A stretch of 64,000 nucleotides of DNA from Candidatus Zixiibacteriota bacterium (lineage in GTDB: Bacteria > Zixibacteria > MSB-5A5 > UBA10806): NCBI GenBank assembly GCA_024641335.1, contig JAHEDG010000010.1, forward strand, positions 9,910 through 73,909, read 5' to 3'. The notes beneath the pieces were generated by a model. That model did not search any database, was not told the DNA's origin, and saw nothing but the letters and a program-made list of their open reading frames with translations. Shown piece by piece: positions 12,310-64,000 of the stretch; within the stretch, counting starts at the first letter, position 1; every line of letters begins with the position of its first letter. A program made the position numbers and the translations under genes.

Positions 12310-13545
12310 CTATCGTCTCGATCTAAGGGATTCTATTTCTTCTCTCAAGCCGACCATCATTTCAGCCAGAAAGCCGATGGCAAACAATAATAATCCCGAA
12401 AGGACCAGAAGGATGGTAGGGAAAAGCAAGGTTCTGGACCCGTGTTCGGTGAAATATCTGAGGTATAAGGCGAGCAGTCCGACAATGCCGCCAGACCCTC
12501 CCAAAATAAACCCCCACGTACCGAAAAGCCTCAGAGGTTTTTTCACAAACGAGATCTGAAATTTTACAGAGAACAAATCCAGAACGCCGTCCATAATCCG
12601 GCCCGCCCCGAATTTGCTTTTCCCGAATTTTCTGGGAAAGAGCTTGACCTTGACCTCGTCGATGACAAAACCCTGTTCAGCGGCCAGAACCACCAGGTAC
12701 CTGTGCCAGTCCCGGCGCAGAGTAATGGAATCGACCACATCTTTTTTGAAAGCTTTTACGGAGTTCATATCATGAATCTTCAAGCCGAAAAGCATTCGGC
12801 AGATTTTATTGTAAATAAAAGAGACTAATCTCTTATTGTATTTACCCTGTTTCCACCCGGCGACGACGTCGGCGCCCTGATCGATCCTGGCAATCATCCT
12901 GGGAATATCCTGCGGGCTGTACTGTAAATCGGCGGGATAAAACACCATAATCGAACCGTGCGCCTGTTTGAACCCGGTATTCAGAGCGGCAGTTAATCCC
13001 CGGTTGCGGGAGTACCCGGTAACCTTAAGCCAGGGGTAAGAGCGCGTGGCCTTACGGGCTCTTTCCTCTGTTCGATCGGTCGAGCCGTCATTGACATAGA
13101 TAACTTCCCACTCCGCTCCGGACTTTTTGATAACCTCATCGAATTGATCGAGCAGAGGCTGGACATTGTCTTCCTCGTTATAGGCCGGTATTATTACGCT
13201 GACTTTGGTTCTTGCTTTCCCCTTAAATCTATTATTATCGCGGTCACGTCCCGGTCGAGAGTCTGACCGGTCCCTTTTTCTGTCGCCGTACTGATTGGGT
13301 TTTCTTTCGGGTCTTCTTTGTTCCCTCCGTTGTGGGGGCTGAGAAGATCGGGGTCTATTTGATTCGGACTCTTTTCTTGTCTCCACTGATACTTCCGGCT
13401 TGATAATCGGAGGTATTTCTTTGGGAGTTTCTTCGGCCGGCGCGGCCTTTTGTCCTTCGGCCTCGGGGTTTTTGGGGCTTTCGGCTACGGCAGGCTTAAA
13501 TTTCTTGACCCTTCTGCGACCATAAAGTCTTTCTCCGTTTTCCAT
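12310..13545 (-). CDS. GtrB/DPM1-like polyprenyl-phosphate glycosyltransferase (GT2) with C-terminal TM helices and an unusual ~110-aa K/R/E/P-rich N-terminal extension
   Basis: Core VSVIIPAYNEEDNV…YVNDGSTDRT…, plus a C-terminal 2-TM anchor as in GtrB/ArnC/Ppm1. The N-terminal 110 aa (…RRVKKFKPAVAESPKNPEAEGQKAAPAEETPKEIPP…RREQRRPERKPNQYGDRKRDRSDSRPGRDRDNNRFKGKARTK) is low-complexity but in frame with no internal ATG. Confidence 0.7.
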   Translation of the reverse strand: MENGERLYGRRRVKKFKPAVAESPKNPEAEGQKAAPAEETPKEIPPIIKPEVSVETRKESESNRPRSSQPPQRREQRRPERKPNQYGDRKRDRSDSRPGRDRDNNRFKGKARTKVSVIIPAYNEEDNVQPLLDQFDEVIKKSGAEWEVIYVNDGSTDRTEERARKATRSYPWLKVTGYSRNRGLTAALNTGFKQAHGSIMVFYPADLQYSPQDIPRMIARIDQGADVVAGWKQGKYNKRLVSFIYNKICRMLFGLKIHDMNSVKAFKKDVVDSITLRRDWHRYLVVLAAEQGFVIDEVKVKLFPRKFGKSKFGAGRIMDGVLDLFSVKFQISFVKKPLRLFGTWGFILGGSGGIVGLLALYLRYFTEHGSRTLLFPTILLVLSGLLLFAIGFLAEMMVGLREEIESLRSRR

Positions 13546-21437: not shown

Positions 21438-22490
21438 TTATCTCCAGACAGGATTGCCGGACATGATCATATCCGGGCCTGATTTTTGCCATCGGATATG
21501 GTCAATTCCTATGGATTTACCGATAGTTTTGATTCCAAGTTCCCGGATCGCCGGGATGCCGTCCCCAATTATGATCGGAGCGACGCAGACGATTATTTTA
21601 TCGACCAGTTTCTGAGTCAGAAAAGAGGTCAGTGTCAATGATCCGCCTTCCACCATGAGAGTCATAATTCCCATTTTCCCCAGCCTGGACAATAGATCGC
21701 GAAGGTCGAGAACGCCCCGTTTCGTTTTTACGGGAATAATATCAAAACCAGTTCCTGGAACCGTTTTTGTATTTTCCGGCAGGGCTACAAATGAGCGGGC
21801 CAGGCCGTCTTTGAACATGATTCTATCGCGGCCGATTTGGCCGGAGTTCGAAAGGACAATTCTAATCGGGTTTGAGCCTTTGACCAGACGGGTGGTCAGT
21901 TGAGGGTTATCATTGCGTAATGTCTCCGCCCCAACAAGTATAGCGTCATGGGACGCTCGCAGCTTATGGGAGCGCTTGAGCGATTCAGCGGATGATATCC
22001 ATCTCGAATGGCCTGTGGAGGACGCTATCCGGCCGTCGAGGCTCTGTGCGAATTTGAGGGTTACGAACGGCAAACCCTCAGTAACGAATTTAAAATAAGG
22101 GCGATAAAACGTCTCCGCGTAATTTTCACCGATATTTTGTATGACCTCGACTCCCGCCTGGTGTAATTTTCGGAATCCCCTGCCGGATACTATGGGATTT
22201 TTATCTATAACAGGGCAAACTACTTTTGAGATACCGGCGGCAATGATAGCGTCGGAACAAGGAGGGGTTTTACCGTGATGGGAACATGGTTCGAGAGTAA
22301 CTACCAGTGAAGCTCCACGAGCGTCATCTCCGGCTTTGCGGATGGCTTCTATCTCGGCATGAAGACCGCCGGCCCGGCGATGAAACCCCCGGGCGATAAT
22401 CCGGCCATCCTTAACCAGCAACGCGCCTACGGGTGGATTGGGACTCGTATAGCCGAGTCCTTTTTCGGCCAGTTTGAAAGCCGACATCAT
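21438..22490 (-). CDS. ribD: bifunctional diaminohydroxyphosphoribosylaminopyrimidine deaminase / 5-amino-6-(5-phosphoribosylamino)uracil reductase
   Basis: CMP/dCMP-type deaminase motifs (HAEIEA…, PCSHHGKTPPC) plus the RibD C-terminal reductase domain. The start is placed at MMSAFKLAEKG (22490) because the track start at 22526 lies inside the riboswitch terminator hairpin. Confidence 0.85.
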   Translation of the reverse strand: MMSAFKLAEKGLGYTSPNPPVGALLVKDGRIIARGFHRRAGGLHAEIEAIRKAGDDARGASLVVTLEPCSHHGKTPPCSDAIIAAGISKVVCPVIDKNPIVSGRGFRKLHQAGVEVIQNIGENYAETFYRPYFKFVTEGLPFVTLKFAQSLDGRIASSTGHSRWISSAESLKRSHKLRASHDAILVGAETLRNDNPQLTTRLVKGSNPIRIVLSNSGQIGRDRIMFKDGLARSFVALPENTKTVPGTGFDIIPVKTKRGVLDLRDLLSRLGKMGIMTLMVEGGSLTLTSFLTQKLVDKIIVCVAPIIIGDGIPAIRELGIKTIGKSIGIDHIRWQKSGPDMIMSGNPVWR

Positions 22491-22509
22491 TAATTTTTCA
22501 AAGTTATCC

Positions 22510-22537
22510 AATAAAAAACCCCGCACTTCGGGGGATA
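22510..22537 (-). terminator. intrinsic terminator forming the expression platform of the FMN riboswitch
   Basis: Minus-sense CCCCG-AAGUG-CGGGG followed by UUUUUUAUU, located between the FMN aptamer and the ribD start. Confidence 0.7.
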
Positions 22538-22557
22538 TGATCGCGCCAAAGACGCAA

Positions 22558-22692
22558 CCGGTCTTCTCTCATCCGGACTGTAACCGTCGGCGCCTGGATT
22601 TCACAGGCTCAGGCCGTCCTGATCATTCTGATCCGAAGGCCTCGCGGGCTTTAACCGCCGGTCGAGGATTTCCGCCTCGCCCCGAAGACAGA
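22558..22692 (-). ncRNA. FMN riboswitch (RFN element) aptamer upstream of ribD
   Basis: Reverse-strand read: …CUUCGGGGCGAGGCGGAAAUCCUCGACCGGCGGUUAAAGCCCGCGAGGCCUUCGGAUCAGAAUGAUCAGGACGGCCUGAGCCUGUGAAAUCCAGGCGCCGACGGUUACAGUCCGGAUGAGAGAAGACCGG. It contains the conserved RFN blocks (GGGGC.AGG…GAAAUUCC-like, GACCGGCGGU, AAGCCCGCGAGC, GCCGACGGU, ACAGUCCGGAUGAGAGAAG). Confidence 0.8.
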
Positions 22693-22696
22693 AGGA

Positions 22697-51760: not shown

Positions 51761-52906
51761 CTATTCTGTTTCCTTAAGCAGCATACGGGAGATAACCAGC
51801 CTTTGTATCTCGGAAGTTCCCTCGCCTATTTCGCAAAGTTTGACATCCCGGTACATTCGCTCTACCGGGTAACGATCGCCATAGCCTTCCGCTCCGAGAA
51901 TCTGGATGGCCTGATAAGTGACGAAATTTCCGACTTCGGAAGCGTAAAGCTTGGCCATAGCCGATTCTTTGGAATAACGTCTTTTCCCTTCGTCTTTAAG
52001 GCTGGCGGCGTGGTAAACAAGATGCCTGGCGGCCTGAATTCTTGTGGCCATATCGGCCAGCTTAAAACCTATGCCCTGGTAATCTCCTATAGCCTTACCG
52101 AATTGTTTGCGGTTTTTGGCGTATTTCACGGCCACGTCGAAGGCCCCCTGGGCCAGACCTAGAGCCATAGCTCCGATAGAGATCCGTCCGCCATCGAGGG
52201 TTTTCATGAATTGCTTGAATCCGGAACCTGTTTCGCCGAGCAGGTCTGAATCAGGAACGAAACAGTCGTCAAAATGCAGAAACCGAGTATCTGAGCCTCT
52301 AAGCCCCATTTTATTTTCTTTTTTCCCTGACGAAAAACCGGCAGTACCCGATTTCATGATGAAGGATGAGATGGAATGCGATCCCGGTTCATATGATGTT
52401 CTGGCGGTAAAGACAAATGTGGAGGCTACTCCGGCGTTGGTGATCCAGCATTTGGTCCCGTTGACCTTGAAGCCGCCATCGGTTTTTTCGGCGAATGTCC
52501 TGGTGCCGCCGGCATCGGAACCTGCTCCGGGCTCGGTCAATCCGAATCCGGCCAGATCTCCGCCGGTAGTAATGGCCGGTAGAAATTTCTTTTTTTGTTC
52601 TTCTGTTCCGAATTCATAAATCGGCCAGCATCCGAGAGAGTTATGAGCGGCCAGAGTTATTCCGGTTGACCCGCAAACGCGTGATACTTCCTCGACAGCG
52701 ATAATATAGGTCATCGTGTCGGAGAGTGTGCCGCCGTATTTTTCATCGACCACCATTCCCAGAAGCCCGAACTTATTGAGTCTGGCGACCAGTTCATCGG
52801 GGAAAACCTGTTCTCTGTCGATTTTGGTTGTTAACGGCAGTATTTCGGCGAGCGCGAATTCTCTGATTTTCGATCTGTATTTGTCATGTTTATCTGATGT
52901 CCACAT
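51761..52906 (-). CDS. acyl-CoA dehydrogenase (short/medium-chain type)
   Basis: 381 aa, ACAD N/M/C domains, catalytic-base region …YDVKLCEIGEGTSEIQRLVISR…. Confidence 0.9.
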   Translation of the reverse strand: MWTSDKHDKYRSKIREFALAEILPLTTKIDREQVFPDELVARLNKFGLLGMVVDEKYGGTLSDTMTYIIAVEEVSRVCGSTGITLAAHNSLGCWPIYEFGTEEQKKKFLPAITTGGDLAGFGLTEPGAGSDAGGTRTFAEKTDGGFKVNGTKCWITNAGVASTFVFTARTSYEPGSHSISSFIMKSGTAGFSSGKKENKMGLRGSDTRFLHFDDCFVPDSDLLGETGSGFKQFMKTLDGGRISIGAMALGLAQGAFDVAVKYAKNRKQFGKAIGDYQGIGFKLADMATRIQAARHLVYHAASLKDEGKRRYSKESAMAKLYASEVGNFVTYQAIQILGAEGYGDRYPVERMYRDVKLCEIGEGTSEIQRLVISRMLLKETE

Positions 52907-52907
52907 T

Positions 52908-54053
52908 TTATTTTTTCCCCAGGTTTCTGAAAATTACCATACGCTGCGCTTCCGACGTTCCCTCGTATATTTCAGTTACCCGGGCATCTCGGAAATATCT
53001 TTCGACAGGATATTCTTTCACGTAGCCGTACCCCCCATGAATCTGCACGGCTTCATTAGCCACCCAATTAGCTGTTTCGGAGGCTTGCAGTTTGGCCATA
53101 GAGATGAATTTGGAGGCTTCCCTGCCGAGTTTGTCTTTTTTCCAGGCCGCCGAATAGGTCAGCAGTCTGGCAGCCTCGATTTTCAGGGCCATATCCGCGA
53201 GTTTGAACTGAATAGTCTGGAAGTTGGCGATAGGCTGATCGAACTGCTCCCGTTGATGAGCGTATTTGTAGGCTTCCTCGAAAGCGGCCTGGGCAATACC
53301 GACTCCCTGTGCGGCGACTCCCATCCTGCCACCGTCAAGAAGAGACAAGGCGACCTTGAAACCGTGATTTTTTTCGCCGATCAGATTCTCTTTTGGTATT
53401 TCGCAATCGACGAAAGAAACTTCGCGGGTATCCGAGGGTTTGATTCCCATTTTTTTCTCTTTAGCCCCCAGACTCAATCCCGGGGTATCTTTATCAACTA
53501 TAAAACAGGATATGCCTTTGGGACCCAATGACCTGTCGGTCAGAGCGAAGACTATAAAAACTTTAGCTACTCCAGCCGATGTTATCCATGATTTTGTACC
53601 GTTAAGAATGAATTTATCGCCTTTTTCATCGGCGGTACATTTGAGGGAACCGGCATCTGTTCCGGCATCCGGTTCTGAAAGGCAATATGAGCCGAAAAAT
53701 TCACCCGAAGCCATGGAAGGGAGATACTTGTCTTTCAGGAAATCGGAACCCCAGTTATGGACCGCTCCGCAACAAAGGGAGTTATGCACGGAAAGACCGA
53801 TCATGACACCGGCTGATCCGCGGGCCAGTTCCTCCATGGCGCAGACATAGGAAAGGCTATCGAGCTCCAATCCTCCGTATTTTTCCGGGAGGAGCATGCC
53901 GAAATATCCGAGATCGGCCAGCTCTTTGTATATTTCCGGCGGGACAGCCTCTTCCTCATCCATTTTTTCGGCAATGGGGATGAGTTTTTTCTCGGCAAAT
54001 TCCCGGGCCGCGTCGCGCATCAATATCTGGTCTTCGCCCAATTCAAAATCCAT
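52908..54053 (-). CDS. acyl-CoA dehydrogenase (butyryl-CoA dehydrogenase-like), second copy
   Basis: 381 aa ending …RDARVTEIYEGTSEAQRMVIFRNL…. Tandem with the previous ACAD, separated by 1 nt. Confidence 0.9.
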   Translation of the reverse strand: MDFELGEDQILMRDAAREFAEKKLIPIAEKMDEEEAVPPEIYKELADLGYFGMLLPEKYGGLELDSLSYVCAMEELARGSAGVMIGLSVHNSLCCGAVHNWGSDFLKDKYLPSMASGEFFGSYCLSEPDAGTDAGSLKCTADEKGDKFILNGTKSWITSAGVAKVFIVFALTDRSLGPKGISCFIVDKDTPGLSLGAKEKKMGIKPSDTREVSFVDCEIPKENLIGEKNHGFKVALSLLDGGRMGVAAQGVGIAQAAFEEAYKYAHQREQFDQPIANFQTIQFKLADMALKIEAARLLTYSAAWKKDKLGREASKFISMAKLQASETANWVANEAVQIHGGYGYVKEYPVERYFRDARVTEIYEGTSEAQRMVIFRNLGKK

Positions 54054-54092: not shown

Positions 54093-54947
54093 CTATTTGC
54101 CGTAATCGTAAAAACCCCGGCCCGATTTTCGTCCCAGGTATCCGGCCATGACCAGCTTCTTGAGCAGCGGGCAGGGACGATATTTAGAATCAGAGTAACC
54201 TTCATACAAAACGTTCATAATGTCAAGACAAACGTCCAAACCGATAAAATCGGCCAGGGTCAACGGTCCCATAGGATGATTCATGCCCAGTTTCATGACC
54301 GTATCGATATCTTCGGCTTTGGCCACGCCTTCCATTAGGCAAAAAGCGGCCTCGTTGATCATCGGCATGAGCACCCGGTTGGATATGAAGCCGGGATAAT
54401 CGTTGACCTCAACCGGTGTTTTGCCTATCGCGATCGATAAATCATGGATGGTTTTGTAGGTTTCATCGGAGGTAGCGTGTCCCCGGATAATCTCGACCAG
54501 CTTCATCATGGGTACGGGGTTCATGAAATGCATACCTATAAATCTATCGGGCCGTGTGGTATCGGAAGCCATAGCGGTTATAGGGAGCGACGACGTATTC
54601 GAAGCGAAGATAGTTTCGCTCTTACAAACAGAATCGAGCGCTTCGAATATTTCGGCTTTGACATGGCCGTCCTCATAAACGGCCTCAATAGCCAGATCAG
54701 CCGTTTTGGCGTCCTCGATTTTCAGAGTCGGCTTGATACGGCCTGTTATGGCGGAAATATTGTCGGCCGAGATCTCCCCTTTTTTCGCCTGACGATCCAG
54801 GTTCTTTTTAATAGTCGCCATCGCCTTATCCAGATATTCCTGTCCGGTTTCCACTAACAGAGTCTCGAATCCATTCTGCGCGAACACATGAGCGATACCG
54901 TTGCCCATAGTGCCGCCGCCTACCACCGCGATCTTCTTAATCTTCAT
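54093..54947 (-). CDS. hbd: 3-hydroxybutyryl-CoA dehydrogenase (NAD-dependent 3-hydroxyacyl-CoA dehydrogenase)
   Basis: 284 aa with N-terminal Rossmann [14 protein letters not shown] plus the 3HCDH C-terminal domain. Confidence 0.9.
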
Positions 54948-55134: not shown

Positions 55135-55923
55135 CTATAATTCACTCTGTATCTGTTTCTCCATCAGGTTCCAGGTTTCTACGGTCCTGACCGAATCGAT
55201 AAGATTACCGAATTCATCGCGAACATAATGAACGCCAAAATCCATTTGAGATTTTACCAATCCGTCATCCGTATACCAATCGTAGAAAGATATAACGACA
55301 TTCGGATTCGGTATCATGACGTCAGAAATATGGCTGCTGACAACGTCGCAGAGAAAATAACCGGCCATAATATCCAGATACTCCGTGCCGGCGACAAAGC
55401 TCGATTTACTTCCCTGCATATGGCTCCAGCAAAGCCAGCCCTTACCATTCGACAGAGGAAAATCAAGCCAAATCCCGGGCTGATCATTAAGAAGCGGATG
55501 GGGCTCCGAACCGGGGTTGTAGATATCCGCCGCATATTCTTTCAGTCTGCCGTTGTCTATTTTAACCAGATATCTGGCGATAGATGTGTCGATCAGATCG
55601 GCCGCGGTAGTGATAATCGTATCTTCGAGAGCAACCAGGCCGGCGATATCGAAGGCGGTATCGGGGCCGATAACATGCCTGGAGATCTCTCTTCTGATTG
55701 TATCGGCCAAAGCGGAATCGTTGAAGGGATAATCGATCATAAATCCATCATAGACCCATCTGCTGTCAGTTGTCAAAGGGAAACCGGAGGTCGGTGTTCT
55801 ACCCGGTTTCGACGGTCCGTCTCCGCAGGCCAAACTAAGTACGAGCAGAGCGATTAATATTGTGAAAACAGCTAATTTCAACATTACCGTCACTCCTCGA
55901 ATTAAAGGTTCGAAATTTATCAA
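55135..55923 (-). CDS. hypothetical lipoprotein (paralog 1)
   Basis: 262 aa with signal peptide and lipobox (…LSLACGDG). Shares block similarity with the adjacent ORF (…HYVRDEFGNLIDSVRTVETWNLMEKQ vs …VDIRRDELGNPIDSARAIEIMELIDYQ). Confidence 0.5.
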   Translation of the reverse strand: MINFEPLIRGVTVMLKLAVFTILIALLVLSLACGDGPSKPGRTPTSGFPLTTDSRWVYDGFMIDYPFNDSALADTIRREISRHVIGPDTAFDIAGLVALEDTIITTAADLIDTSIARYLVKIDNGRLKEYAADIYNPGSEPHPLLNDQPGIWLDFPLSNGKGWLCWSHMQGSKSSFVAGTEYLDIMAGYFLCDVVSSHISDVMIPNPNVVISFYDWYTDDGLVKSQMDFGVHYVRDEFGNLIDSVRTVETWNLMEKQIQSEL

Positions 55924-56654
55924 CCGTTTATCTGATAATCGATAAGTTCCATTATCTCTATCGCCCGGGCGGAATCGATGGGATTACCCAGTTCGTCTCT
56001 TCGAATATCAACACCGTAATCAATCTCTGATCGAATCAGACCATCATTGGAATACCACCAGTACGAATCGAAAAATTGATGCCCGGTATTGGAATCGAGC
56101 GCCCTCGTTCGAACGACGTCGCATTTAACAATACCGCTGCCCACAGCGATATTCTCGATACCGACGACGCTGCTGTAAATATCGGCGATATCGGTTTGAT
56201 AAACCGGGAAGGCCTTTCCGGGAAAAAGCGGGAAATCAAGAATAACGCGGGGAGTTGAAAAATATAAAGGAACCGGAGTTTCGCCCGGCAAAAACGAACT
56301 AGAGGCGAACTGTAATAGTTGTCCGGCCGAAAGACCGTACCAATATCTGAATACGAAAGAATCGGGAGGAACCCCGGGGTCGTCACGAAAGGTGGAATCA
56401 TCGACAAGGAAGGTCTGGGTTGAGTTGATTATGGTATCCTGGCCTATTACCCGACGATAGATCACGAATGTTTGAGTATCGGTTACCGCGGAATCGGCAA
56501 ATGGAATATCGAGATACCACTTAACATATTCCCAACGGGCGCCTGTCTCTAAAGGAAATGCGGTGGCCCCGATATACTCAGGCTCAGTGTTTTTTGTGGA
56601 GCAACCCATGAACAACAAGGTGCCAATCAGGGTGATTAGGAATTTATTAATCAT
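55920..56654 (-). CDS. hypothetical lipoprotein (paralog 2)
   Basis: 244 aa with signal peptide and lipobox (…LFMGCSTKN). Tandem paralog of the previous gene, with a 4-nt overlap. Confidence 0.5.
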   Translation of the reverse strand: MINKFLITLIGTLLFMGCSTKNTEPEYIGATAFPLETGARWEYVKWYLDIPFADSAVTDTQTFVIYRRVIGQDTIINSTQTFLVDDSTFRDDPGVPPDSFVFRYWYGLSAGQLLQFASSSFLPGETPVPLYFSTPRVILDFPLFPGKAFPVYQTDIADIYSSVVGIENIAVGSGIVKCDVVRTRALDSNTGHQFFDSYWWYSNDGLIRSEIDYGVDIRRDELGNPIDSARAIEIMELIDYQING

Positions 56655-56798: not shown

Positions 56799-57983
56799 CT
56801 ACATCATTTCTATCGCTAACGCGACCGCATTGCCGCCGCCGAGGCATAATGTTGCCATGCCGGTCTTAAGCCCGCGGTCCTTGAGAGCGTATATCAACGT
56901 GGTCAATATCCTGGAGCCGGAGGCTCCGATCGGGTGACCCAGGGCTATCGCTCCGCCGTTTACATTGACCTTATTGTAATCCCAGCCGAGCTCGTTGCCG
57001 TCGGCTAAGCATTGGGCAGCGAAGGCCTCGTTGGCCTCGATCAGGTCCCAATGGCCGATCTTGACATTCATCTTCTTCATCAAATTTTGCACAGCGTAGA
57101 TTGGCGCGAAAAAGAGATCCTGGGGATCGGTGCCCGCCGCCGCGTAGGCGATAATTTTAGCCAGCGGTTTGTGGCTATGCTTTTGTGCATATTCTATCGA
57201 TGAAACTATGACCGCTGATGAACCGTCGTTTAAGCCCGGAGCGTTGCCGGCCGTGATTATCCCGTCTTTTTGAAAGGCCGGCCTGAGCTTAGCCAGCGTC
57301 TCCACGGTCGTTTGCGGACGAGGACATTCATCAGTATCGAAAACGACCGGATCGCCTTTACGCTGGGCAATCTCGATCGGGAATATTTCGGTTTTGAACT
57401 TACCGTCGGCCATCGCTTTGCCCGCTTTTTGCTGTGAATTGGCCGAATATTCATCCAACATTTGACGGGTCAGCTTGGCTTTTACGGCGGTATATTCGGC
57501 GGCGCTACCCATATGGTAATCGTTGAACGAGTCCCAGAGGCCGTCGGTGATCATCAAGTCCACTAATTGCTTATGCCCGAATTTCAATCCGCCTTTAGCC
57601 CCGTGCAGAGCGTACGGCGTGTTAGACATCGATTCCTGCCCTCCAGCTACAAACAGATGGCCGTCGCCGGCTTTGATCGCCTGGGCTGAGAGCATGACCG
57701 CTTTTAAGCCCGAACCGCAGACTTTGTTGATGGTCAGCGCGGGGACTTTCGACGGTATCCCGCCGTGCATGGCCGCCTGACGGCCGGGGGCCTGATTGGA
57801 GCCGCCCTGCACTACCTGCCCCATGATTACCTCGTCGATATCATTAGGGTCGATACCGGCCCGTTTTACCGCTTCTTTTATCGCCAGCGCCCCTAATTGC
57901 GGGGCGGTAAAGTTTGAGAGACCGCCTAAGAAATTCCCTATCGCCGATCGGCACGCTGATAATATTACAGCTTCACCAGCCAT
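56799..57983 (-). CDS. acetyl-CoA C-acetyltransferase (thiolase II)
   Basis: 394 aa with active-site regions …[12 protein letters not shown]…, …[17 protein letters not shown]…, and a [11 protein letters not shown]-terminus. Confidence 0.9.
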
Positions 57984-58037
57984 TTATTCCTCCTTACACC
58001 AAGTATTTATTTAACGGGATACTATGTTATTTATTAT

Positions 58038-58877
58038 TTACTGTTTTTTCTTTCTTTTCAAGTAATCTTCTAATGCGACGATCTCACGACCCTTTTTCGC
58101 GGCAATCATCTGTCTTTTCTCCACAATCGCTCGCTCAATTATTACTAGGAGCAAATCCGAAATTAATTTATACATAGTAGCTTGGGCTTCAATACATTGC
58201 TGAAATTCCCTTTCAAAAACAATTTTCGTATATATTTTTGGAAGACGAAATTGCGGTTTTTCCTCTTCTGGTAAAATATCCATGAACATGCTTTCAAGAA
58301 ACAGTTTTCCCATATCTTCTGACCGGGTTGTTTTTGCCTGATGGATAGTTATGTTTCGGAATTTTCGATGCTCTTCCAAGAATTTGTGCACCGTTGAAAG
58401 CCGTTTCTTGATAGTACTCCTCCTAATCCGAGGTGAATTATAAATGATCTGGAATTTTGCGTCTTGATCTCTAAGACCGAATTCGTATGTTTTATTTATT
58501 AAGGCAAGACACACATCTTCAAGTGAAACAAGTAATATGTAAAACATCTTTTGATTGTAAAGAAAATAATCAATCTGTCTCATTTTAACACTTTTCAAAT
58601 AACTCGCCGAAGGAAATCTGCTCAATAGGAAAATGCAGTTTTCCAAATCTGAAAATATTCTAACGGTACCTGAAAACGAGTGCAAGACATCTACTATGTA
58701 GGACTCGGCTTTCGATAATGAAGCGTTTTGATCTCCGGTTAAATAATTTTCCATTTGCTGTGTCAATATTTTATATTCAGATTCGAATGGAATAAAATAC
58801 TTATTAAAGACGATACCTTCAAATAGTTTCTTATTGTCGTACCATTTCTTCCGTATCGTTTTTTTAATTGTCAGCAT
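58038..58877 (-). CDS. HEPN-like protein with R-N-xxx-H motif (candidate Abi/defence RNase) encoded in a low-GC single-gene island
   Basis: 279 aa, no TM. The motif …EEHRKFRNITIHQAKT… is an exact R-N-x3-H HEPN signature. The gene is clearly AT-rich by eye (GC not computed) against about 50% GC flanks, and is bordered by a REP-like repeat at 59009-59056. Confidence 0.4.
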   Translation of the reverse strand: MLTIKKTIRKKWYDNKKLFEGIVFNKYFIPFESEYKILTQQMENYLTGDQNASLSKAESYIVDVLHSFSGTVRIFSDLENCIFLLSRFPSASYLKSVKMRQIDYFLYNQKMFYILLVSLEDVCLALINKTYEFGLRDQDAKFQIIYNSPRIRRSTIKKRLSTVHKFLEEHRKFRNITIHQAKTTRSEDMGKLFLESMFMDILPEEEKPQFRLPKIYTKIVFEREFQQCIEAQATMYKLISDLLLVIIERAIVEKRQMIAAKKGREIVALEDYLKRKKKQ

Positions 58878-59008
58878 AAGACACCGTAATTTTCGCTGTC
58901 GGCAGACAAGTTACCGACTTACATTATCCTTCCCATTGTCCCGCTTCTGGATTCCCGCCCATACGGGTCCGTAGGACTTCCGCGGGAATGACAGGGTTCG
59001 TTCCCGGC

Positions 59009-59056
59009 GCGTCAGGATGTCAATTCATTCCATCCTGACGCATCACGCATCAATCT
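59009..59056. repeat. REP-like palindromic element, copy B (GCGTCAGGATG…CATCCTGACGC plus CATCAATC tail)
   Basis: An 11-bp inverted repeat with an 11-nt loop, just past the TPR-lipoprotein stop. It shares the tail …CATCCTGACGCATCA(CGCATCA)ATC with copy C. Confidence 0.45.
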
Positions 59057-59059
59057 GGC

Positions 59060-59833
59060 CTACTTTTGCTGTTTTATCAAAAAGATCGTGTCACGGGCTT
59101 TGTCGGCCCATTGGCCGGTCGGTTCCTTTTCGAGATACTTCTCAAACCACTCCCTGGATCTGTCATACTTTTTCTGCTCATAATAGAGTTGGCCGAGCAT
59201 AAAAATGGCCTCGGGCATCGAGCCAACCCTGACAGCGTCGAGGAACTTCGCTTCAGCCTCGGCGGTATCCCCCTCTTTCCAAGCGACTAACCCCAGGCCG
59301 TAATATCCCCGCGGATAAGTAGCGTCGACGGTTACAGCCATACCGAAATATTTTTTGGCCATCCGAAGATTGCCGCGCGCAAGCCAGATAGTGGCCATAT
59401 TCTGATAAGTTCTGGGATAGAGATTGTCTATGTCGGCTGCCCGATCGTACCAGATCAAAGCATCATCATAGTTGCCCTGCATATAGTAAATATTACCGAT
59501 TGACTGGTAAGCGTCGACATTGGCGGGATTATAGACAATAGCCCCGGTATAGTAAACAATAGCGCTATCATCCAAACCTATCTGCTGGTAGCAAACAGCC
59601 AATTCATGATAAGCCGGAGCGAAATTGTTTCTTTGTTTTAAGGTTTTCCTGAAATACGGAATGGCCTTCTGGGGCAGATTTTGGACCATAAATTGATGGG
59701 CTTTGGTGTAATTTTTCAGGTAGGCATCGTCGGGCTGAACAAAAACCCCGCAAGAGACGGTGAGGATAGCAGCGGCCAGAGTGGTTAAAACCGCGAACTT
59801 TGTGATTTTTTTCATTAATACCCTCAAAAACAC
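59060..59833 (-). CDS. TPR-repeat lipoprotein
   Basis: 257 aa with signal peptide and lipobox (…AAILTVSCGVF), then at least 5 TPR units (…AYHELAVCYQQIGLDD…, …AYQSIGNIYYMQGNYDDA…). Confidence 0.65.
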   Translation of the reverse strand: MFLRVLMKKITKFAVLTTLAAAILTVSCGVFVQPDDAYLKNYTKAHQFMVQNLPQKAIPYFRKTLKQRNNFAPAYHELAVCYQQIGLDDSAIVYYTGAIVYNPANVDAYQSIGNIYYMQGNYDDALIWYDRAADIDNLYPRTYQNMATIWLARGNLRMAKKYFGMAVTVDATYPRGYYGLGLVAWKEGDTAEAEAKFLDAVRVGSMPEAIFMLGQLYYEQKKYDRSREWFEKYLEKEPTGQWADKARDTIFLIKQQK

Positions 59834-60010
59834 CCGGTTTGATCAACGGTGATTTCTTATTATATTGTTTATATGCTCGATAATCAATTCGAATTTGAAA
59901 AAAACTCGATCCCGGTGATATTTAGGAGCTTATGAGATATTAGAATTATCAAGCGGTATCGAAAAAGGCTCCTGAACCGGAGTGCAGGGGCTGGTTCCGG
60001 GCCAAATAAG

Positions 60011-60039
60011 TTGACATTAACTCATCCAGATTTTAGATT
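60011..60039 (+). promoter_or_regulatory. sigma70-type promoter for the HMGCS operon
   Basis: TTGACA (60011-60016), 17-nt spacer, then TAGATT (60034-60039), about 60 nt upstream of the HMGCS ATG. It lies in the divergent spacer marking the strand switch. Confidence 0.45.
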
Positions 60040-60102
60040 ACCAGCCATTATGGAAACGATGAACTTTGGCCTTTCGAAATATACAACGAGGAAAGGATTT
60101 TT

Positions 60103-61155
60103 ATGGTAGGAATAATCGGTTACGGAGCATACATACCCAGAAACCGGATTAAGGTCGAGGAGATCGCCAAGGTCTGGGGGGCCGACGCTCCCAGCTACAA
60201 AAAAGGGCTGATGCTTCAGGAAAAATCAGTACCGTCGCCCGACCAGGATACGATAACTATGGCGGTGGAAGCGACCAAGAACGCCATTAAGCGGGCCGGA
60301 ATCGACCCTGGCGAAATCGGAGCGGTGTATGTCGGTTCGGAATCTCACCCCTATGCGGTTAAGCCGTCGGGAACAACCCTGGCCGAGGCCATCGGGGCCA
60401 CTCCCGATTGTCATTGCGCCGATTTCGAATTCGCCTGCAAAGCGGGTTCAGAGGGGATGTTTGTGGCCATGAGTCTGGTTAAGGCTGGCGAAATCAAGTA
60501 CGGTGTCGGAGTCGGAGCGGATACGTCGCAGGGAGCTCCCGGGGACGCGTTGGAGTATTCAGCGTCAGCCGGCGCGGCGTCTTTTATATTCGGCAAGGAG
60601 AAAATATTAGCTGAATGCCATCACACGCATTCTTTCATGACTGACACCCCCGATTTTTGGCGTAGAGAGCATCAGTTTTACCCCAGCCACGCCTCCCGAT
60701 TTACCGGGGAGCCGGCATATTTCAGAACAATAACAGGATGCGCTACAGCCCTTTTGGAAAAATCGAAGATGAAACCCGCGGATTTCGCTTTCGCGGTATT
60801 TCATCAGCCCAACGGTAAATTCCCGATGACTGTCGGCAAGAAGCTCGGATTCACCGAAGCACAGATGAAACAGGGCTGGCTCTGTCCGACGCTCGGCAAT
60901 ACTTATTCGGGAGCCTCTCCTATTGGTCTGACCGCGATTTTAGACGTGGCCAAGCCGGGAGACTGGATTTTTATGGCGTCTTACGGCTCCGGGGCCGGCA
61001 GCGACGGTTTTATCTGGAAAGTAACTGATAGAATCAAAGAGGTCCAGAATATGGCGCCTCATACCCGGGCCATGCTGGATACCGAAAGAAGAAGATATCT
61101 TGATTACGGCACCTATACGAAGTTCAGGGGCAAAATCAAGTTAAGAGGCGAATAA
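60103..61155 (+). CDS. hydroxymethylglutaryl-CoA synthase, archaeal-type (about 350 aa)
   Basis: MVGIIGYGAYIPRNRIKVEEIAKVWG…GAVYVGSESHPYAVKPSGT…ADFEFACKAGSEG…GADTSQGAPGDALEYSASAGAASFIFG. This is near-collinear with archaeal short-form HMGCS. RBS GAGGAAAGGA. Confidence 0.85.
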   Translation: MVGIIGYGAYIPRNRIKVEEIAKVWGADAPSYKKGLMLQEKSVPSPDQDTITMAVEATKNAIKRAGIDPGEIGAVYVGSESHPYAVKPSGTTLAEAIGATPDCHCADFEFACKAGSEGMFVAMSLVKAGEIKYGVGVGADTSQGAPGDALEYSASAGAASFIFGKEKILAECHHTHSFMTDTPDFWRREHQFYPSHASRFTGEPAYFRTITGCATALLEKSKMKPADFAFAVFHQPNGKFPMTVGKKLGFTEAQMKQGWLCPTLGNTYSGASPIGLTAILDVAKPGDWIFMASYGSGAGSDGFIWKVTDRIKEVQNMAPHTRAMLDTERRRYLDYGTYTKFRGKIKLRGE

Positions 61156-61168
61156 TCCGTTTCGCGGT

Positions 61169-62002
61169 TTGGAATCAGGGCGGAAGAATTTGAAGAATAC
61201 AGGTTATAAAAAGGTCGCAAGCGACAGCTGGAAAAGCGCCGGGTCCTATGAAGAATTTATGGGACGATGGAGCCATTCGGTGGCCGAGCGTTTCTTGAAA
61301 TGGCTGAATATCGAGCCTCGGCTCCGCTGGCTAGAAATCGGCTGTGGGACTGGCGCTCTTACCCGGGCGATCTTGACAGCGGCGGATCCAACGACGATAA
61401 CGGCAATCGATCCATCCGAAGCCTATATCGCTTATTGCCGCGCCCGAACATCGGATAAGCGAGCGCTATTCAAGGAAGGCGAAATCGCGTCGATAGGGTC
61501 TGATACCGAGCAATACGACGTTATCGTTTCGAGTTTGGTGCTTAATTTTTTGCCTGAACCCGTCGAGAGTCTGGCATTGATGGGACAGGCAATCTGCAGG
61601 GGCGGTATTATCGCTGCCTATGTCTGGGATTACTCTGAGGGCATGCAATTTCTGCGTTACTTCTGGGATGCCGTTGTCGAGCTAGATCCCCGGCAGGCAA
61701 GTTTGCACGAGGGCGTGAGGTTCGGGATCTGCAAAGCCGACGCTTTGAAGCGCCTTTTCTCCTCAGCCGGCTTCGGAGAAATCGAAATGACAGCGATCGA
61801 TATTCCCACGCCATTTCGAGATTTCGATGATTTCTGGCAGCCCTTCACTTCGGGGCAGGGGCCGGCCGGGAGTTATTGCGCTTCGCTTAACGATCACCAG
61901 CTAAAAGCCCTGAAGGAGATTCTACGAGTGAAAGTCCCATCCGAAAACGACGGCTCAATTGCGTTATTGGCGCGAGCCTGGGCGATAAGGGGTAGAAAAT
62001 AG
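61169..62002 (+). CDS. class I SAM-dependent methyltransferase
   Basis: LEIGCGTGALTRAIL… (motif I), plus …DVIVSSLVLNFLP… (motif II/III), the Methyltransf_11/25-like fold. Confidence 0.7.
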   Translation: MESGRKNLKNTGYKKVASDSWKSAGSYEEFMGRWSHSVAERFLKWLNIEPRLRWLEIGCGTGALTRAILTAADPTTITAIDPSEAYIAYCRARTSDKRALFKEGEIASIGSDTEQYDVIVSSLVLNFLPEPVESLALMGQAICRGGIIAAYVWDYSEGMQFLRYFWDAVVELDPRQASLHEGVRFGICKADALKRLFSSAGFGEIEMTAIDIPTPFRDFDDFWQPFTSGQGPAGSYCASLNDHQLKALKEILRVKVPSENDGSIALLARAWAIRGRK

Positions 62003-62046
62003 GAAACACCATACACTGAAGAATATTTATTATTGGAGGAATAAAC

Positions 62047-63207
62047 ATGAGAGATGTGGCAGTAATCGGGGTCGGGATGAACAAATGGGGCGAGCTTTGG
62101 GAAACATCCCTTCGCGATTTGATCGCCCAAAGCGCCCTGATGGCCCTTGATGACGCCGGGATAGAAGAGGTCGAGGCGATGTATATAGGTTGTATGTCGT
62201 CAGGACTTTTCACCGACCAGGAGCATTTAGGCTCCATGGGCCCCGATTATTCGGGGATCTGCCCTGTACCCGGAACACGAGTGGAATCAGCCTGCGCGTC
62301 CGGCGGAGCGGCCTTCAGATCGGCCTACATGCATGTAGCGTCGGGAATGGCCGATATCGTCATGGCCGCCGGAGTCGAGAAGATGACCGATGTCGACGGC
62401 GGCGGGGCGACGTTCGCGTTGGCCACCGCGGCCGACCAGGAATACGAAGTTTACAACGGGGTTACTTTCCCCGGGCTTTACGCCATGATGGCCAATCATC
62501 ATATGAAAAAATACGGCACCACCCGGGATCAATTGGCGCAGGTATCTGTTAAGAACCATTACAACGGCGCTAAAAACTCGCTGGCCCAGTTCAGGATGGA
62601 AGTATCGCTGGACCAGGTAAAGAACGCGGTAATGGTTTCCGATCCATTAACTCTTTTGGATTGCTCCCCTATCACCGACGGTTCGGCGGCTGTCATTCTT
62701 TGCTCGATGGATAAGGCCAAATCGCTCACCAAGAAACGTCTGGTCAAGGTAATCGGTTCGGGTCACGCGTCGGATACGATACAACTGGCCCAGCGCGAGG
62801 ATCTTTCCAGCTTAAAATCGACCGCCATAGCCGCCAAACAGGCGTTGGATATGGCCGGCAGAAAGATCAACGATATAAATTTCGCCGAGGTTCACGATTG
62901 TTTCAGTATCGCAGAGATAATGGTAATCGAGGCATTAGGTATCGCGGCCCAAGGCAAAGGCGGCCCGGCCACGGCAGACGGCACTACGGCGATGACCGGC
63001 AAATTTCCGGTGAATGTCAGCGGCGGACTAAAATCGAAGGGCCACCCGGTGGGAGCGACCGGTGTAGCGCAGATCGTGGAGCTTACCAAGCAGATCCGCG
63101 GCGAGGCCGATAAGGATCGTCAATTGAAAAAGGCGGATATCGGGTTGGCGCAGAATATGGGCGGCAGCGGCGCCAGCAGTGTGGTTCATATATTGGAGGG
63201 AATGTAA
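62047..63207 (+). CDS. thiolase-fold acetoacetyl-CoA thiolase, archaeal type (SCP-x-like, partner of HMGCS and DUF35)
   Basis: 386 aa. MRDVAVIGVG…, an active-site Cys in …ESACASGGAAF…, and a C-terminal …NVSGGLKSKGHPVGATG… region. It lacks the bacterial thiolase II C-terminal CxG signature. RBS GGAGG. Confidence 0.8.
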   Translation: MRDVAVIGVGMNKWGELWETSLRDLIAQSALMALDDAGIEEVEAMYIGCMSSGLFTDQEHLGSMGPDYSGICPVPGTRVESACASGGAAFRSAYMHVASGMADIVMAAGVEKMTDVDGGGATFALATAADQEYEVYNGVTFPGLYAMMANHHMKKYGTTRDQLAQVSVKNHYNGAKNSLAQFRMEVSLDQVKNAVMVSDPLTLLDCSPITDGSAAVILCSMDKAKSLTKKRLVKVIGSGHASDTIQLAQREDLSSLKSTAIAAKQALDMAGRKINDINFAEVHDCFSIAEIMVIEALGIAAQGKGGPATADGTTAMTGKFPVNVSGGLKSKGHPVGATGVAQIVELTKQIRGEADKDRQLKKADIGLAQNMGGSGASSVVHILEGM

Positions 63208-63208
63208 G

Positions 63209-63598
63209 ATGTCAGCCCCTAAATACTGGAGAGAGATTCCGCAGAGATACCGTTTCGAGGCGGCCAAATGCAAAAAGTGCGGCAAGGTTTCGTTCCCGCC
63301 CAGGATAGTATGTCCTGAATGCCGTTCGAGGGAATTCGAAAATACGCGCATAAACGACAAGGGAACGGTGGAGACATACACGGTCATACGGGTGGCGCCA
63401 ACTCAATTCACCGATGAAGCGCCGTATCCGGTAGCCATAGTAGACGTGGGAGACGGTGTCCGTGTTCTCTGCCAGGTGGCAGATTGCGGTCCGGAGGAAA
63501 TAAAAATCGGCATGTCTGTCCGTCTGGAGTTCCGCAAGGTTCAACAGGAAGGACACGGCGGTATAATCAACTATGGTTATAAATGCGTGCCGGAGTAG
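63209..63598 (+). CDS. DUF35 zinc-ribbon/OB-fold protein (scaffold of the archaeal thiolase-HMGCS complex)
   Basis: 129 aa with C4 Zn-ribbon CKKCGKVSFPPRIVCPECRS and an OB-fold (…GTVETYTVIRVAPTQF…). The ATG at 63209 sits 1 nt after the thiolase stop, with GGAGGG as RBS. Confidence 0.8.
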   Translation: MSAPKYWREIPQRYRFEAAKCKKCGKVSFPPRIVCPECRSREFENTRINDKGTVETYTVIRVAPTQFTDEAPYPVAIVDVGDGVRVLCQVADCGPEEIKIGMSVRLEFRKVQQEGHGGIINYGYKCVPE

Positions 63599-63615
63599 AA
63601 ATAAAGAAAGGATGT

Positions 63616-63663
63616 GTCAGGAAGGAGCCCGTTTTTCAGGCCGACATCCTGACGCATCAATCA
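63616..63663. repeat. REP-like palindromic element, copy C (GTCAGGA…TCCTGACGCATCAATC)
   Basis: 7-bp arms around a 24-nt loop, 18 nt after the DUF35 gene stop. The tail CATCCTGACGCATCAATC is identical to copy B. Confidence 0.45.
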
Positions 63664-63682
63664 AAGACGATAGGAAACTTTA

Positions 63683-64000
63683 GTGTTTCAAATTCAATCC
63701 AAAATCGATACCAATAGTATCGAATACAAACAAAACTTCGAGCATCTTCAAAAGAGCGTGGCCCGGCTGAAGGAAAAGCTGGCCGCAGCCCGCGAAGGCG
63801 GACCTGAAAAGGCTCGGGAGAAGCATCTTAAGAGGGGCAAGCTCCTGACCCGCGATCGGGTTAAGAAGTTGTTCGACCGGAATACGCCGTTTTTGGAATT
63901 ATCTCCTCTGGCGGCAGACGATATGTATGATAATGAAGCCCCCGCCGCCGGAGTAATAACCGGTATCGGAATCGTCCACGGGCGAGAAGTGATGGTGGTG
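63683..64000 (+). CDS. acyl-CoA carboxylase carboxyltransferase (beta) subunit, methylcrotonyl-/propionyl-CoA carboxylase family; 3'-truncated by the window edge
   Basis: GTG start with AGGAAA SD. …[72 protein letters not shown]… is the conserved N-terminus of biotin-dependent carboxyltransferase beta chains. Confidence 0.75.

Follow-up and report, generated by a model that had tools for sequence, protein, structure and literature searches.

The complex of a thiolase, 3-hydroxy-3-methylglutaryl-coenzyme A (HMG-CoA) synthase (HMGCS) and a DUF35 protein is viewed as the route by which archaea enter isoprenoid lipid synthesis, and a 2018 abstract by Vögeli et al. is said to note the trio 'in some bacterial' genomes. 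HMGCS is also reported to lie in an operon for isovaleryl-CoA synthesis in Myxococcus, that of the alternative isovaleryl-CoA biosynthesis (AIB) pathway. We describe here a trio of the archaeal kind encoded at the end of a 64,000-nucleotide stretch of DNA from a Candidatus Zixiibacteriota bacterium (contig JAHEDG010000010.1, positions 9,910 to 73,909 of the forward strand; the whole stretch is referred to as the window), and find that the same complex sits in one operon with a predicted leucine-breakdown carboxylase and hydratase, an arrangement repeated across many bacterial phyla. The point of interest is this conserved joining of the trio to a leucine-branch carboxylase and hydratase, with neither an HMG-CoA lyase nor an HMG-CoA reductase nearby. 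The trio itself and its bacterial occurrence are already known, and it is the conserved operon that appears to be undescribed in the literature searched: in those papers we found nothing joining DUF35 with methylcrotonyl-, methylglutaconyl- or isovaleryl-CoA, and nothing relevant on mevalonate, methylerythritol phosphate (MEP) or leucine metabolism in Zixibacteria, Aminicenantes or Eisenbacteria.

Gene content and conservation of the operon

The five co-directional open reading frames (ORFs) listed on the + strand in a preliminary description of this DNA are all present and run head to tail, the last of them cut by the window end. The window is extended by contig L001 (14.4 kb), which was obtained by exact look-up of the HMGCS protein and matches window positions 57756-64000 at 100 % identity over 6245 nt. 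The features of the operon are as follows.

60011-60039 (L001 2256-2284), + strand: promoter-like TTGACA-17 nt-TAGATT, found by a consensus scan
60103-61155, + strand: archaeal-type HMGCS, 350 aa (TIGR00748, NF003274)
61169/61190-62002, + strand: class I S-adenosylmethionine (SAM)-dependent methyltransferase (MTase), 270-277 aa (generic methyltransferase Pfam families)
62047-63207, + strand: SCP-x-type acetoacetyl-CoA thiolase, 386 aa (PRK06064)
63209-63598, + strand: DUF35 protein with a Zn ribbon and an OB fold, 129 aa (zf-ChsH2 and OB_ChsH2_C)
63683-64000, + strand: N-terminal 106 codons of the methylcrotonyl-CoA carboxylase (MCCase) beta subunit gene, GTG start, cut by the window end
L001 5928-7535, same strand as the trio: the full MCCase beta gene, 535 aa
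L001 7547-8344, same strand as the trio: LiuC/AtuE-like crotonase (hydratase), 265 aa
L001 8345-9925, same strand as the trio: biotin carboxylase (BC), 526 aa
L001 9936-10466, same strand as the trio: biotin carboxyl carrier protein (BCCP), 176 aa
L001 10499-10517: terminator-like hairpin 3' of the BCCP gene

This is an eight-gene operon (HMGCS, MTase, thiolase, DUF35, MCCase beta, LiuC-like hydratase, BC and BCCP), of which the window holds the promoter-proximal half, and the spacers between the four genes read from L001 (MCCase beta, crotonase, BC and BCCP) are short. The promoter-like site lies about 64 nt 5' of the HMGCS start codon, and a TTGAC(A/T)...TAnATT hexamer pair is aligned in register 5' of HMGCS in more than 10 related loci; on consensus match and conservation, the sole candidate promoter of the operon is the one ahead of HMGCS. 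An Rfam search returned no known RNA element 5' of HMGCS. The DUF35 ATG (63209) is 1 nt past the thiolase stop codon (TAA, 63205-63207) with GGAGGG shortly upstream, and because of this gap and this motif the translational coupling of thiolase and DUF35 that had been proposed is plausible. The operon, including the MTase gene, resembles glyA, dnaK and the classical thiolase gene in GC content and in GC content at third codon positions (GC3), and neither measure gives a compositional sign of recent transfer for the operon or the MTase.

As judged from its sequence, the trio is fully orthologous to the channelling complex of archaea, because each of the three proteins has its best solved relative among the subunits of the complex from Methanothermococcus thermolithotrophicus (6ESQ/6ET9) and all of the diagnostic residues are kept. 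HMGCS aligns to its 6ESQ/6ET9 counterpart at 459 bits and 61 % identity, the thiolase to 6ESQ chain A at 361 bits and 47 %, and DUF35 to 6ESQ chain E at 114 bits and 43 %. HMGCS scores 517 bits against the archaeal HMGCS model TIGR00748 (cut-off 353) and 530 bits against NF003274 (cut-off 244), whereas it fails the bacterial MvaS model TIGR01835 (104 bits, cut-off 360). The thiolase scores 524 bits against PRK06064 (cut-off 420), and 513 bits against NF053570, a species-specific model of the M. thermolithotrophicus thiolase, which is under the cut-off of 600. A 2026 paper (PMC12960953) describes which residues, among them the Glu-Cys-His-Asn tetrad of HMGCS, tell a genuine HMGCS complex apart from PhlACB and MucABC, bacterial acylases that arose by repurposing. 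The tetrad is kept here as E80, C112, H234 and N266 (in the contexts GSESH, EFACKAG, FHQPNG and LGNTYS), the thiolase keeps C83-A-S85 (CxS), H283-D-C-F286 (HDxF) and G332-H333, and DUF35 keeps the Zn-ribbon cysteines C21xxC24 (CKKC) and C35xxC38 (CPEC). Scores and motifs thus agree with the preliminary description in placing the trio with the archaeal type and not with PksG/MvaS or PhlABC.

The carboxyltransferase, for which a methylcrotonyl- or propionyl-CoA specificity had been suggested, is predicted to be orthologous to MCCase beta, with 751 bits to Pseudomonas aeruginosa MCC beta and 747 bits to human MCCC2, as against 464 bits to geranyl-CoA carboxylase and less than 285 bits to propionyl-CoA carboxylases. 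The rest of the carboxylase and the liuC homologue that were then sought follow it on L001 as BC, BCCP and the LiuC-like crotonase. BC and BCCP are assigned by operon position as the MCCase alpha functions, encoded as separate genes. The crotonase is placed in the LiuC/AtuE group by best match only, its best NCBIfam matches, PRK07468 (270 bits, cut-off 350) and the AtuE gamma-carboxygeranoyl-CoA hydratase model PRK05674 (260 bits, cut-off 426), both being under cut-off.

A distribution scan with one genome per GTDB species gave at least 600 pattern matches, and at least 552 species-level bacterial genomes encode confirmed relatives; the trio is therefore common in bacteria, neither rare nor odd, and the view that an archaeal trio in a bacterial genome is itself an oddity has to be given up. 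The closest genomic relatives among the matches listed are Candidatus Zixiibacteriota metagenome-assembled genomes (MAGs) with 85-88 % HMGCS identity, and relatives are labelled as Zixibacteria, Eisenbacteria, Aminicenantes/Acidobacteriota, Gemmatimonadota, Coatesbacteria, KSB1, Calditrichota, Planctomycetota and Ignavibacteria. Synteny was read from six-frame ORFs of the best 80 of these at least 552 relatives, all with at least 71 % identity, searched with the eight operon proteins. HMGCS, thiolase and DUF35 are co-directional in 70 of the 80 loci, the remaining loci being truncated. Where at least 2.5 kb of downstream sequence is available, an MCC beta orthologue lies within 5 kb in 44 of 56 loci, and five further loci have one that is frameshifted (L010), immediately upstream (L019), rearranged (L054 and L075) or slightly farther away (L061). 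Carboxyltransferase, hydratase and BC occur together in 36 of the 45 loci with at least 6.5 kb downstream, and the median spacers are 4 nt between HMGCS and thiolase and 56 nt between DUF35 and the carboxyltransferase. The seven genes, that is the operon without the MTase, are a conserved operon in many bacterial phyla, and the link between HMG-CoA and leucine that had been offered as one of two readings is strengthened by a complete MCCase and a LiuC-like hydratase in the operon and by the conservation of this linkage across phyla.

Operon-bearing genomes include complete Zixibacterial chromosomes, among them CP070742.1, CP070813.1 and OY969724.1, as well as CP070750.1 and CP070758.1. Some of the related loci need separate comment. 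In L010 (12657-14274) and L011 (11098-12256 and 15247-16744), the carboxyltransferase, thiolase and BC are each spread over two ORFs, which reflects either assembly-error frameshifts or pseudogenisation of the operon. L068, labelled 'Ignavibacterium sp.', was considered as a bridge to a cultured organism and dropped, the nearest relatives of its HMGCS all being Zixibacteria. Many third-party annotation (TPA) MAG labels such as 'uncultured Ignavibacteria', 'Eubacteriales' or 'Cytophagia', like that of L068, conflict with the nearest relatives and are unreliable, and we regard them as unfit for phylum-level inference.

Possible directions of flux through HMG-CoA

From the chemistry of their families, the seven proteins would carry out four consecutive reactions that connect acetyl-CoA, acetoacetyl-CoA, HMG-CoA, 3-methylglutaconyl-CoA and 3-methylcrotonyl-CoA. 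Because these reactions form an unbroken link between acetyl-CoA and 3-methylcrotonyl-CoA, we consider it highly probable that the unit is an HMG-CoA node tied to leucine or isovalerate metabolism, and not a self-evident mevalonate entry.

The consumers of HMG-CoA were sought in the surroundings of the operon. Human HMG-CoA lyase and the catalytic domain of human HMG-CoA reductase served as queries; validated against the human structures in the PDB (655 bits for the lyase and 967 bits for the reductase), they were also effective in positive controls, with 278-383 bits to bacterial lyases and 304 bits to a reductase from an archaeon. Among ORFs of at least 60 aa in 81 loci and the window, neither HMG-CoA lyase nor class I HMG-CoA reductase gave a match at E<=10. 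Motifs of the reductase (DAMGxN), the lyase and GHMP kinases are likewise absent from the window and L001 and from within 10 kb in 80 loci. Neither the window nor the 10-kb surroundings of the 80 related loci thus contain a pointer to the mevalonate-type entry that had been proposed.

We tentatively favor the view that the operon serves the lower part of leucine or isovalerate catabolism, with the trio running in reverse and replacing HMG-CoA lyase. MCCase and hydratase would make HMG-CoA from leucine or isovalerate in their textbook direction, and the thiolase/HMGCS/DUF35 complex would fill the position held in canonical liu operons by HMG-CoA lyase (liuE). The trio would run backwards, converting HMG-CoA and two CoA to three acetyl-CoA, with the unfavorable reversal of HMGCS pulled by channelled thiolysis, and all three thioesters would be conserved by this route. 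By an estimate from textbook values, thiolase condensation costs about +25 kJ/mol and the HMGCS reaction is of similar size and opposite sign; since the two roughly cancel, the sum between three acetyl-CoA and HMG-CoA is estimated to lie near equilibrium and to be sensitive to the ratio of CoA to acetyl-CoA. The genes of an operon normally act in successive steps, and the trio occupies the position expected of liuE, which is the pattern of non-orthologous displacement. The recurrent neighbors of the operon are catabolic, of acyl-CoA and leucine type, and no other HMG-CoA consumer is linked to it in 80 loci. It is conceivable, with lower confidence again, that many phyla use the trio for CoA-dependent cleavage of HMG-CoA in place of the lyase, saving one thioester (about one ATP) per leucine.

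Several observations weigh against a catabolic, reversed trio. To our knowledge, no HMG-CoA synthase has been shown to run in reverse physiologically. The genomes could encode HMG-CoA lyase elsewhere, the hydratase scores are below the curated cut-offs, and the dehydrogenases near the operon are closer to Bcd (5OL2, 388 bits) than to isovaleryl-CoA dehydrogenase (262 bits). The trio lacks a nearby MCCase in seven loci (two labelled Melioribacteraceae, one Calditrichota, one Zixibacteria, one Acidobacteria and two simply 'bacterium'), and one of these, L026, has a hydratase-like gene. A crude neighbor-joining (NJ) tree of 81 bacterial HMGCS with a single archaeal outgroup, a design in which bacterial monophyly is out of reach, intermixes MCC-linked and unlinked enzymes, and both groups are equally close to the archaeal enzyme (about 62 %). 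Because of this intermixing and this equal likeness, there is no sign in the sequences of a 'reverse' enzyme, and comparison of the 81 sequences gave no mark of a specialized form; the trio is the same enzyme whichever way the flux runs. Finally, Caldithrix, a cultured member of a trio-bearing phylum, is entered in Table S1 of PMC13001223 as using the mevalonate pathway.

The alternative that survives best is a convergent supply of HMG-CoA for a bacterial mevalonate pathway, in which both the trio and the MCCase/hydratase pair run in textbook directions and the reductase is encoded elsewhere; we consider this unlikely, but it is a serious contender. It requires no unprecedented enzyme direction, and the trio is indistinguishable from the anabolic archaeal complex. 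An HMG-CoA reductase or GHMP kinase is found within 10 kb in none of the 80 loci, which span at least six phyla, whereas MCCase is present in about 80-88 %, and the co-transcription of a high-flux catabolic carboxylase with a low-flux biosynthetic entry would be unusual. Archaeal mevalonate genes are also scattered, however, and for this reason the missing linkage to a reductase is weak evidence. The cultured relatives point both ways: the mevalonate user Caldithrix abyssi is from the Calditrichota, the phylum of the trio-bearing locus L048, whereas Gemmatimonas, Ignavibacterium and Melioribacter isolates, for which carriage of the operon is not established, are MEP-only (PMC13001223 Table S1). 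Ignavibacterium album is among the MEP-only organisms of the same table, and it is described in the literature as having no branched-chain amino-acid biosynthesis.

Less probable still is an anabolic route from acetyl-CoA to 3-methylcrotonyl-CoA and isovaleryl-CoA, which would provide a primer for iso-fatty acids, or leucine by reductive carboxylation. The route would be AIB-like, except that MCCase would work in the decarboxylating, ATP-yielding direction and a Bcd-like dehydrogenase would perform the reduction. The reported Myxococcus precedent of HMGCS in an isovaleryl-CoA operon speaks for it, as does the fact that the trio and a LiuC-type enzyme would operate in known directions; the nearby dehydrogenases are of the Bcd type, which is reductive in anaerobes, and biotin carboxylases are reversible in vitro. 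However, we know of no physiological reversal of a biotin carboxylase carrying an ATP-grasp subunit, the operon has no AibA/B-type decarboxylase or AibC-type reductase, and the neighboring genes for leucine dehydrogenase, a butyrate kinase-like protein, propionyl-CoA carboxylase-like proteins, a mutase and an epimerase look catabolic.

An equally improbable arrangement is one in which all enzymes run in textbook directions and HMG-CoA lyase is encoded elsewhere, giving ordinary leucine degradation together with a ketogenic HMG-CoA cycle, the trio being merely co-located. Nothing new would be needed for this, and lyase genes do at times lie outside liu clusters. However, no lyase occurs within 10 kb in the 80 loci with a query that readily recovers bacterial lyases, no acetoacetate-activating genes were noticed in the neighborhoods, although no search was aimed at them, and it is not apparent what these bacteria would use a ketogenic cycle for.

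The choice between these readings has consequences beyond this locus. If the operon feeds a mevalonate pathway, acetyl-CoA and leucine may both be sources of isoprenoids in these abundant bacteria of sediment and soil; otherwise the complex would have a second, catabolic or bidirectional role that is missing from the textbooks. Should the reversed trio prove true, a synthase held to be irreversible would be driven backwards by mass action and channelling for the second time, reversed citrate synthase having been the first. Automatic annotation is likely to be wrong twice at such loci, in reporting 'incomplete leucine degradation' and in taking HMGCS as a mevalonate marker.

The inserted methyltransferase and the neighboring genes

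The preliminary description remarked on the class I SAM-dependent MTase between HMGCS and thiolase, and both its class and its position stand, with a start that is ambiguous (the longest ORF begins at TTG 61169, and the source annotation at TTG 61190, giving 270 aa). As part of the system it fares less well: the MTase is confined to a small Zixibacterial subclade and is most likely a retained but dispensable passenger with no pathway role, because it is so restricted and because the same junction carries unrelated insertions in other lineages. The order HMGCS-MTase-thiolase is present on at least seven distinct contigs (L012, L082, L083, L084, L087, L092 and L118) with MTase identities of about 45-59 %. 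The nearest HMGCS relatives (L002-L007, 85-88 %) lack the gene, as do about 95 % of operons, and the NJ tree puts the window and L012 in separate HMGCS subclades. At the HMGCS-thiolase junction, a 23S_rRNA_IVP four-helix-bundle gene is found in L014, L017, L020, L031 and L033, and thi4/thiE-like genes in L061 (11012-12455). The DUF35-MCC beta junction holds an IS200-like Y1-transposase-like ORF in L003, L004, L009 and L041 (Pfam, about 20 bits and under cut-off) and a TPR gene in L031 (6777-8450), and both internal junctions of the operon appear to tolerate insertions.

We consider it very unlikely that the MTase contributes to the working of the system, as would, for example, a BioC/Tam-like O-methyltransferase able to esterify the free carboxylate of HMG-CoA, 3-methylglutaconyl-CoA or the free acids. 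Its retention at one position on several contigs at such low identity favors a function, and its composition (GC 0.533, GC3 0.59) is like that of the rest of the operon. An AlphaFold2 (AF2) model with a predicted local distance difference test (pLDDT) score of 92 has, as its nearest solved folds, the small-molecule methyltransferases JHAMT, Tam, BioC, LahSB and GtmA (template-modelling score, TM, 0.6-0.7; 11-20 % identity), the first four of which are carboxyl methyltransferases, and this modelled likeness would also be consistent with such a role. Against it, the MTase is missing from the closest relatives and most operons, other genes occupy its junction in other lineages, and it diverges much faster than its neighbors, being 52-59 % identical between the window and the insertion-bearing loci where the flanking HMGCS and thiolase are 80-85 % identical. 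Every family-specific model is far under cut-off: the protein matches only the generic Methyltransf_11/12/25 families, and scores 52.7 bits against BioC (cut-off 185) and 35.4 bits against Tam (cut-off 320). The family is very large, with more than 6800 matches at about 50 % identity in many phyla, and most relatives of similar or lower identity are in unrelated contexts, including the two sampled at about 50 % (P0076 and P0007) and about 75 of the best 80 metagenome relatives (<=49 %, 40-49 %). Because matches of the family profile to the PDB cover only the SAM-binding core, a substrate is not inferable from them.

We also note that in another Zixibacterium (L085 2877-11362, and L086) a stress/detoxification island of about 9 kb lies between ribD and ftsY, with OsmC, DinB, AHSA1, UDG and glyoxalase-like genes and three methyltransferases, one of which is 51 % identical to the MTase of the window. 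In the window, ribD and ftsY adjoin each other. A flavin mononucleotide (FMN) riboswitch (RF00050, 100 bits against a gathering score of 66) is situated at 22557-22693 on the - strand, directly 5' of ribD (21438-22526) and at the head of a ribD-ribE-ribBA cluster.

Upstream of the operon, the window contains a group of genes on the opposite strand.

51761-52906 and 52908-54053, - strand: two Bcd/SCAD-like acyl-CoA dehydrogenases (NCBIfam)
54093-54947, - strand: 3-hydroxybutyryl-CoA dehydrogenase (Hbd; NCBIfam)
55135-55923 and 55920-56654, - strand: two unannotated lipoprotein-like genes
56799-57983, - strand: classical acetyl-CoA acetyltransferase (thiolase; NCBIfam)

The two lipoprotein-like genes are tandem overlapping paralogues that lie between hbd and the classical thiolase gene, interrupting a butyrate-type cluster; the one of the pair that was searched, 55135-55923, has no Pfam match. 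Between this cluster and the promoter region of the operon is a gene with a HEPN_Cthe2314 domain (58038-58877, - strand), whose GC content of 0.34 and GC3 of 0.36 compare with a window mean GC of 0.49; it is probably recently acquired DNA, and is perhaps defence-related.

Related loci have similar company. Bcd/SCAD-like dehydrogenases are found by the operon in 16 of 80 loci, some flanking it directly on the same strand, 3-hydroxybutyryl-CoA dehydrogenase in 12 and the classical thiolase in nine. A Glu/Leu/Phe/Val-type dehydrogenase and a butyrate-kinase-like gene are each directly 5' of HMGCS in four loci, and five loci have methylmalonyl-CoA mutase, plus a second carboxylase set. A propionyl-CoA-carboxylase-like set is present 5' of HMGCS in L045, L051, L059 and L063, with methylmalonyl-CoA mutase beside it in the last three, and on L001 a methylmalonyl-CoA epimerase gene (12954-13364, - strand; TIGR03081, 145 bits, cut-off 115) is just downstream of the operon; these genes suggest a larger neighborhood devoted to branched-chain acyl-CoA catabolism.

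Comparison with described systems

The closest described system is the archaeal complex of M. thermolithotrophicus (6ESQ/6ET9). The two have in common three adjacent genes, with 61, 47 and 43 % identity, and the alignment shows that the HDxF motif at the fused CoA site, all four cysteines of the Zn ribbon and every catalytic residue are kept. The locus described here differs in its bacterial host, in an operon that runs on into MCCase and a LiuC-like hydratase, in having no mevalonate genes nearby and in the MTase inserted between HMGCS and thiolase.

The Friedel-Crafts acyltransferases PhlACB and MucABC share the three-protein architecture and a common ancestor with the trio (PMC12960953), but the tetrad and HDxF are lost in them and intact here, and scores to PhlA and PhlC are two to three times lower. 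That the trio is a repurposed C-acyltransferase of this type and not an HMG-CoA synthase complex is therefore ruled out for practical purposes in spite of the known bacterial derivatives (PMC12960953), with HMGCS scoring 186-193 bits to PhlA against 459 to the archaeal enzyme, the thiolase 112 bits to PhlC against 361, and the E-C-H-N tetrad and HDxF motif both retained.

The AIB operon of Myxococcus xanthus (aibR-aibA-aibB-aibC-mvaS), together with LiuC, resembles the present operon in that HMGCS is coupled genetically to enzymes of 3-methylglutaconyl-CoA. However, the present synthase belongs with the archaeal enzymes, scoring 104 bits on the MvaS model TIGR01835 where 360 is the cut-off, no CoA-transferase-like gene (AibA/B) or MDR-reductase gene (AibC) is among the eight of the operon, and a complete ATP-dependent MCCase stands in their place. 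The myxobacterial analogy drawn at the outset thus fails in its defining parts.

For the proposed direction of the trio, the nearest parallel is by analogy only. In the reversed oxidative tricarboxylic acid (roTCA) cycle, citrate synthase, a Claisen-type, thioester-hydrolysing synthase that was held to be irreversible, is reversed in vivo by mass-action ratios. HMGCS would be a synthase of the same kind, although it is from another enzyme family and its reversal is put forward here as a hypothesis.

The liuABCDE operon of Pseudomonas is the counterpart of the second half of the operon, since it likewise brings together liuB for MCCase beta and liuD for the MCCase alpha functions in one operon, along with the hydratase LiuC, of which the crotonase here is the putative equivalent. 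The present operon differs in that the alpha subunit is split into BC and BCCP, and in that there is no clear liuA, the dehydrogenases nearby being Bcd/SCAD-like. It also differs at the last step of the pathway, where the operon has no liuE and the archaeal-type trio stands in its place.

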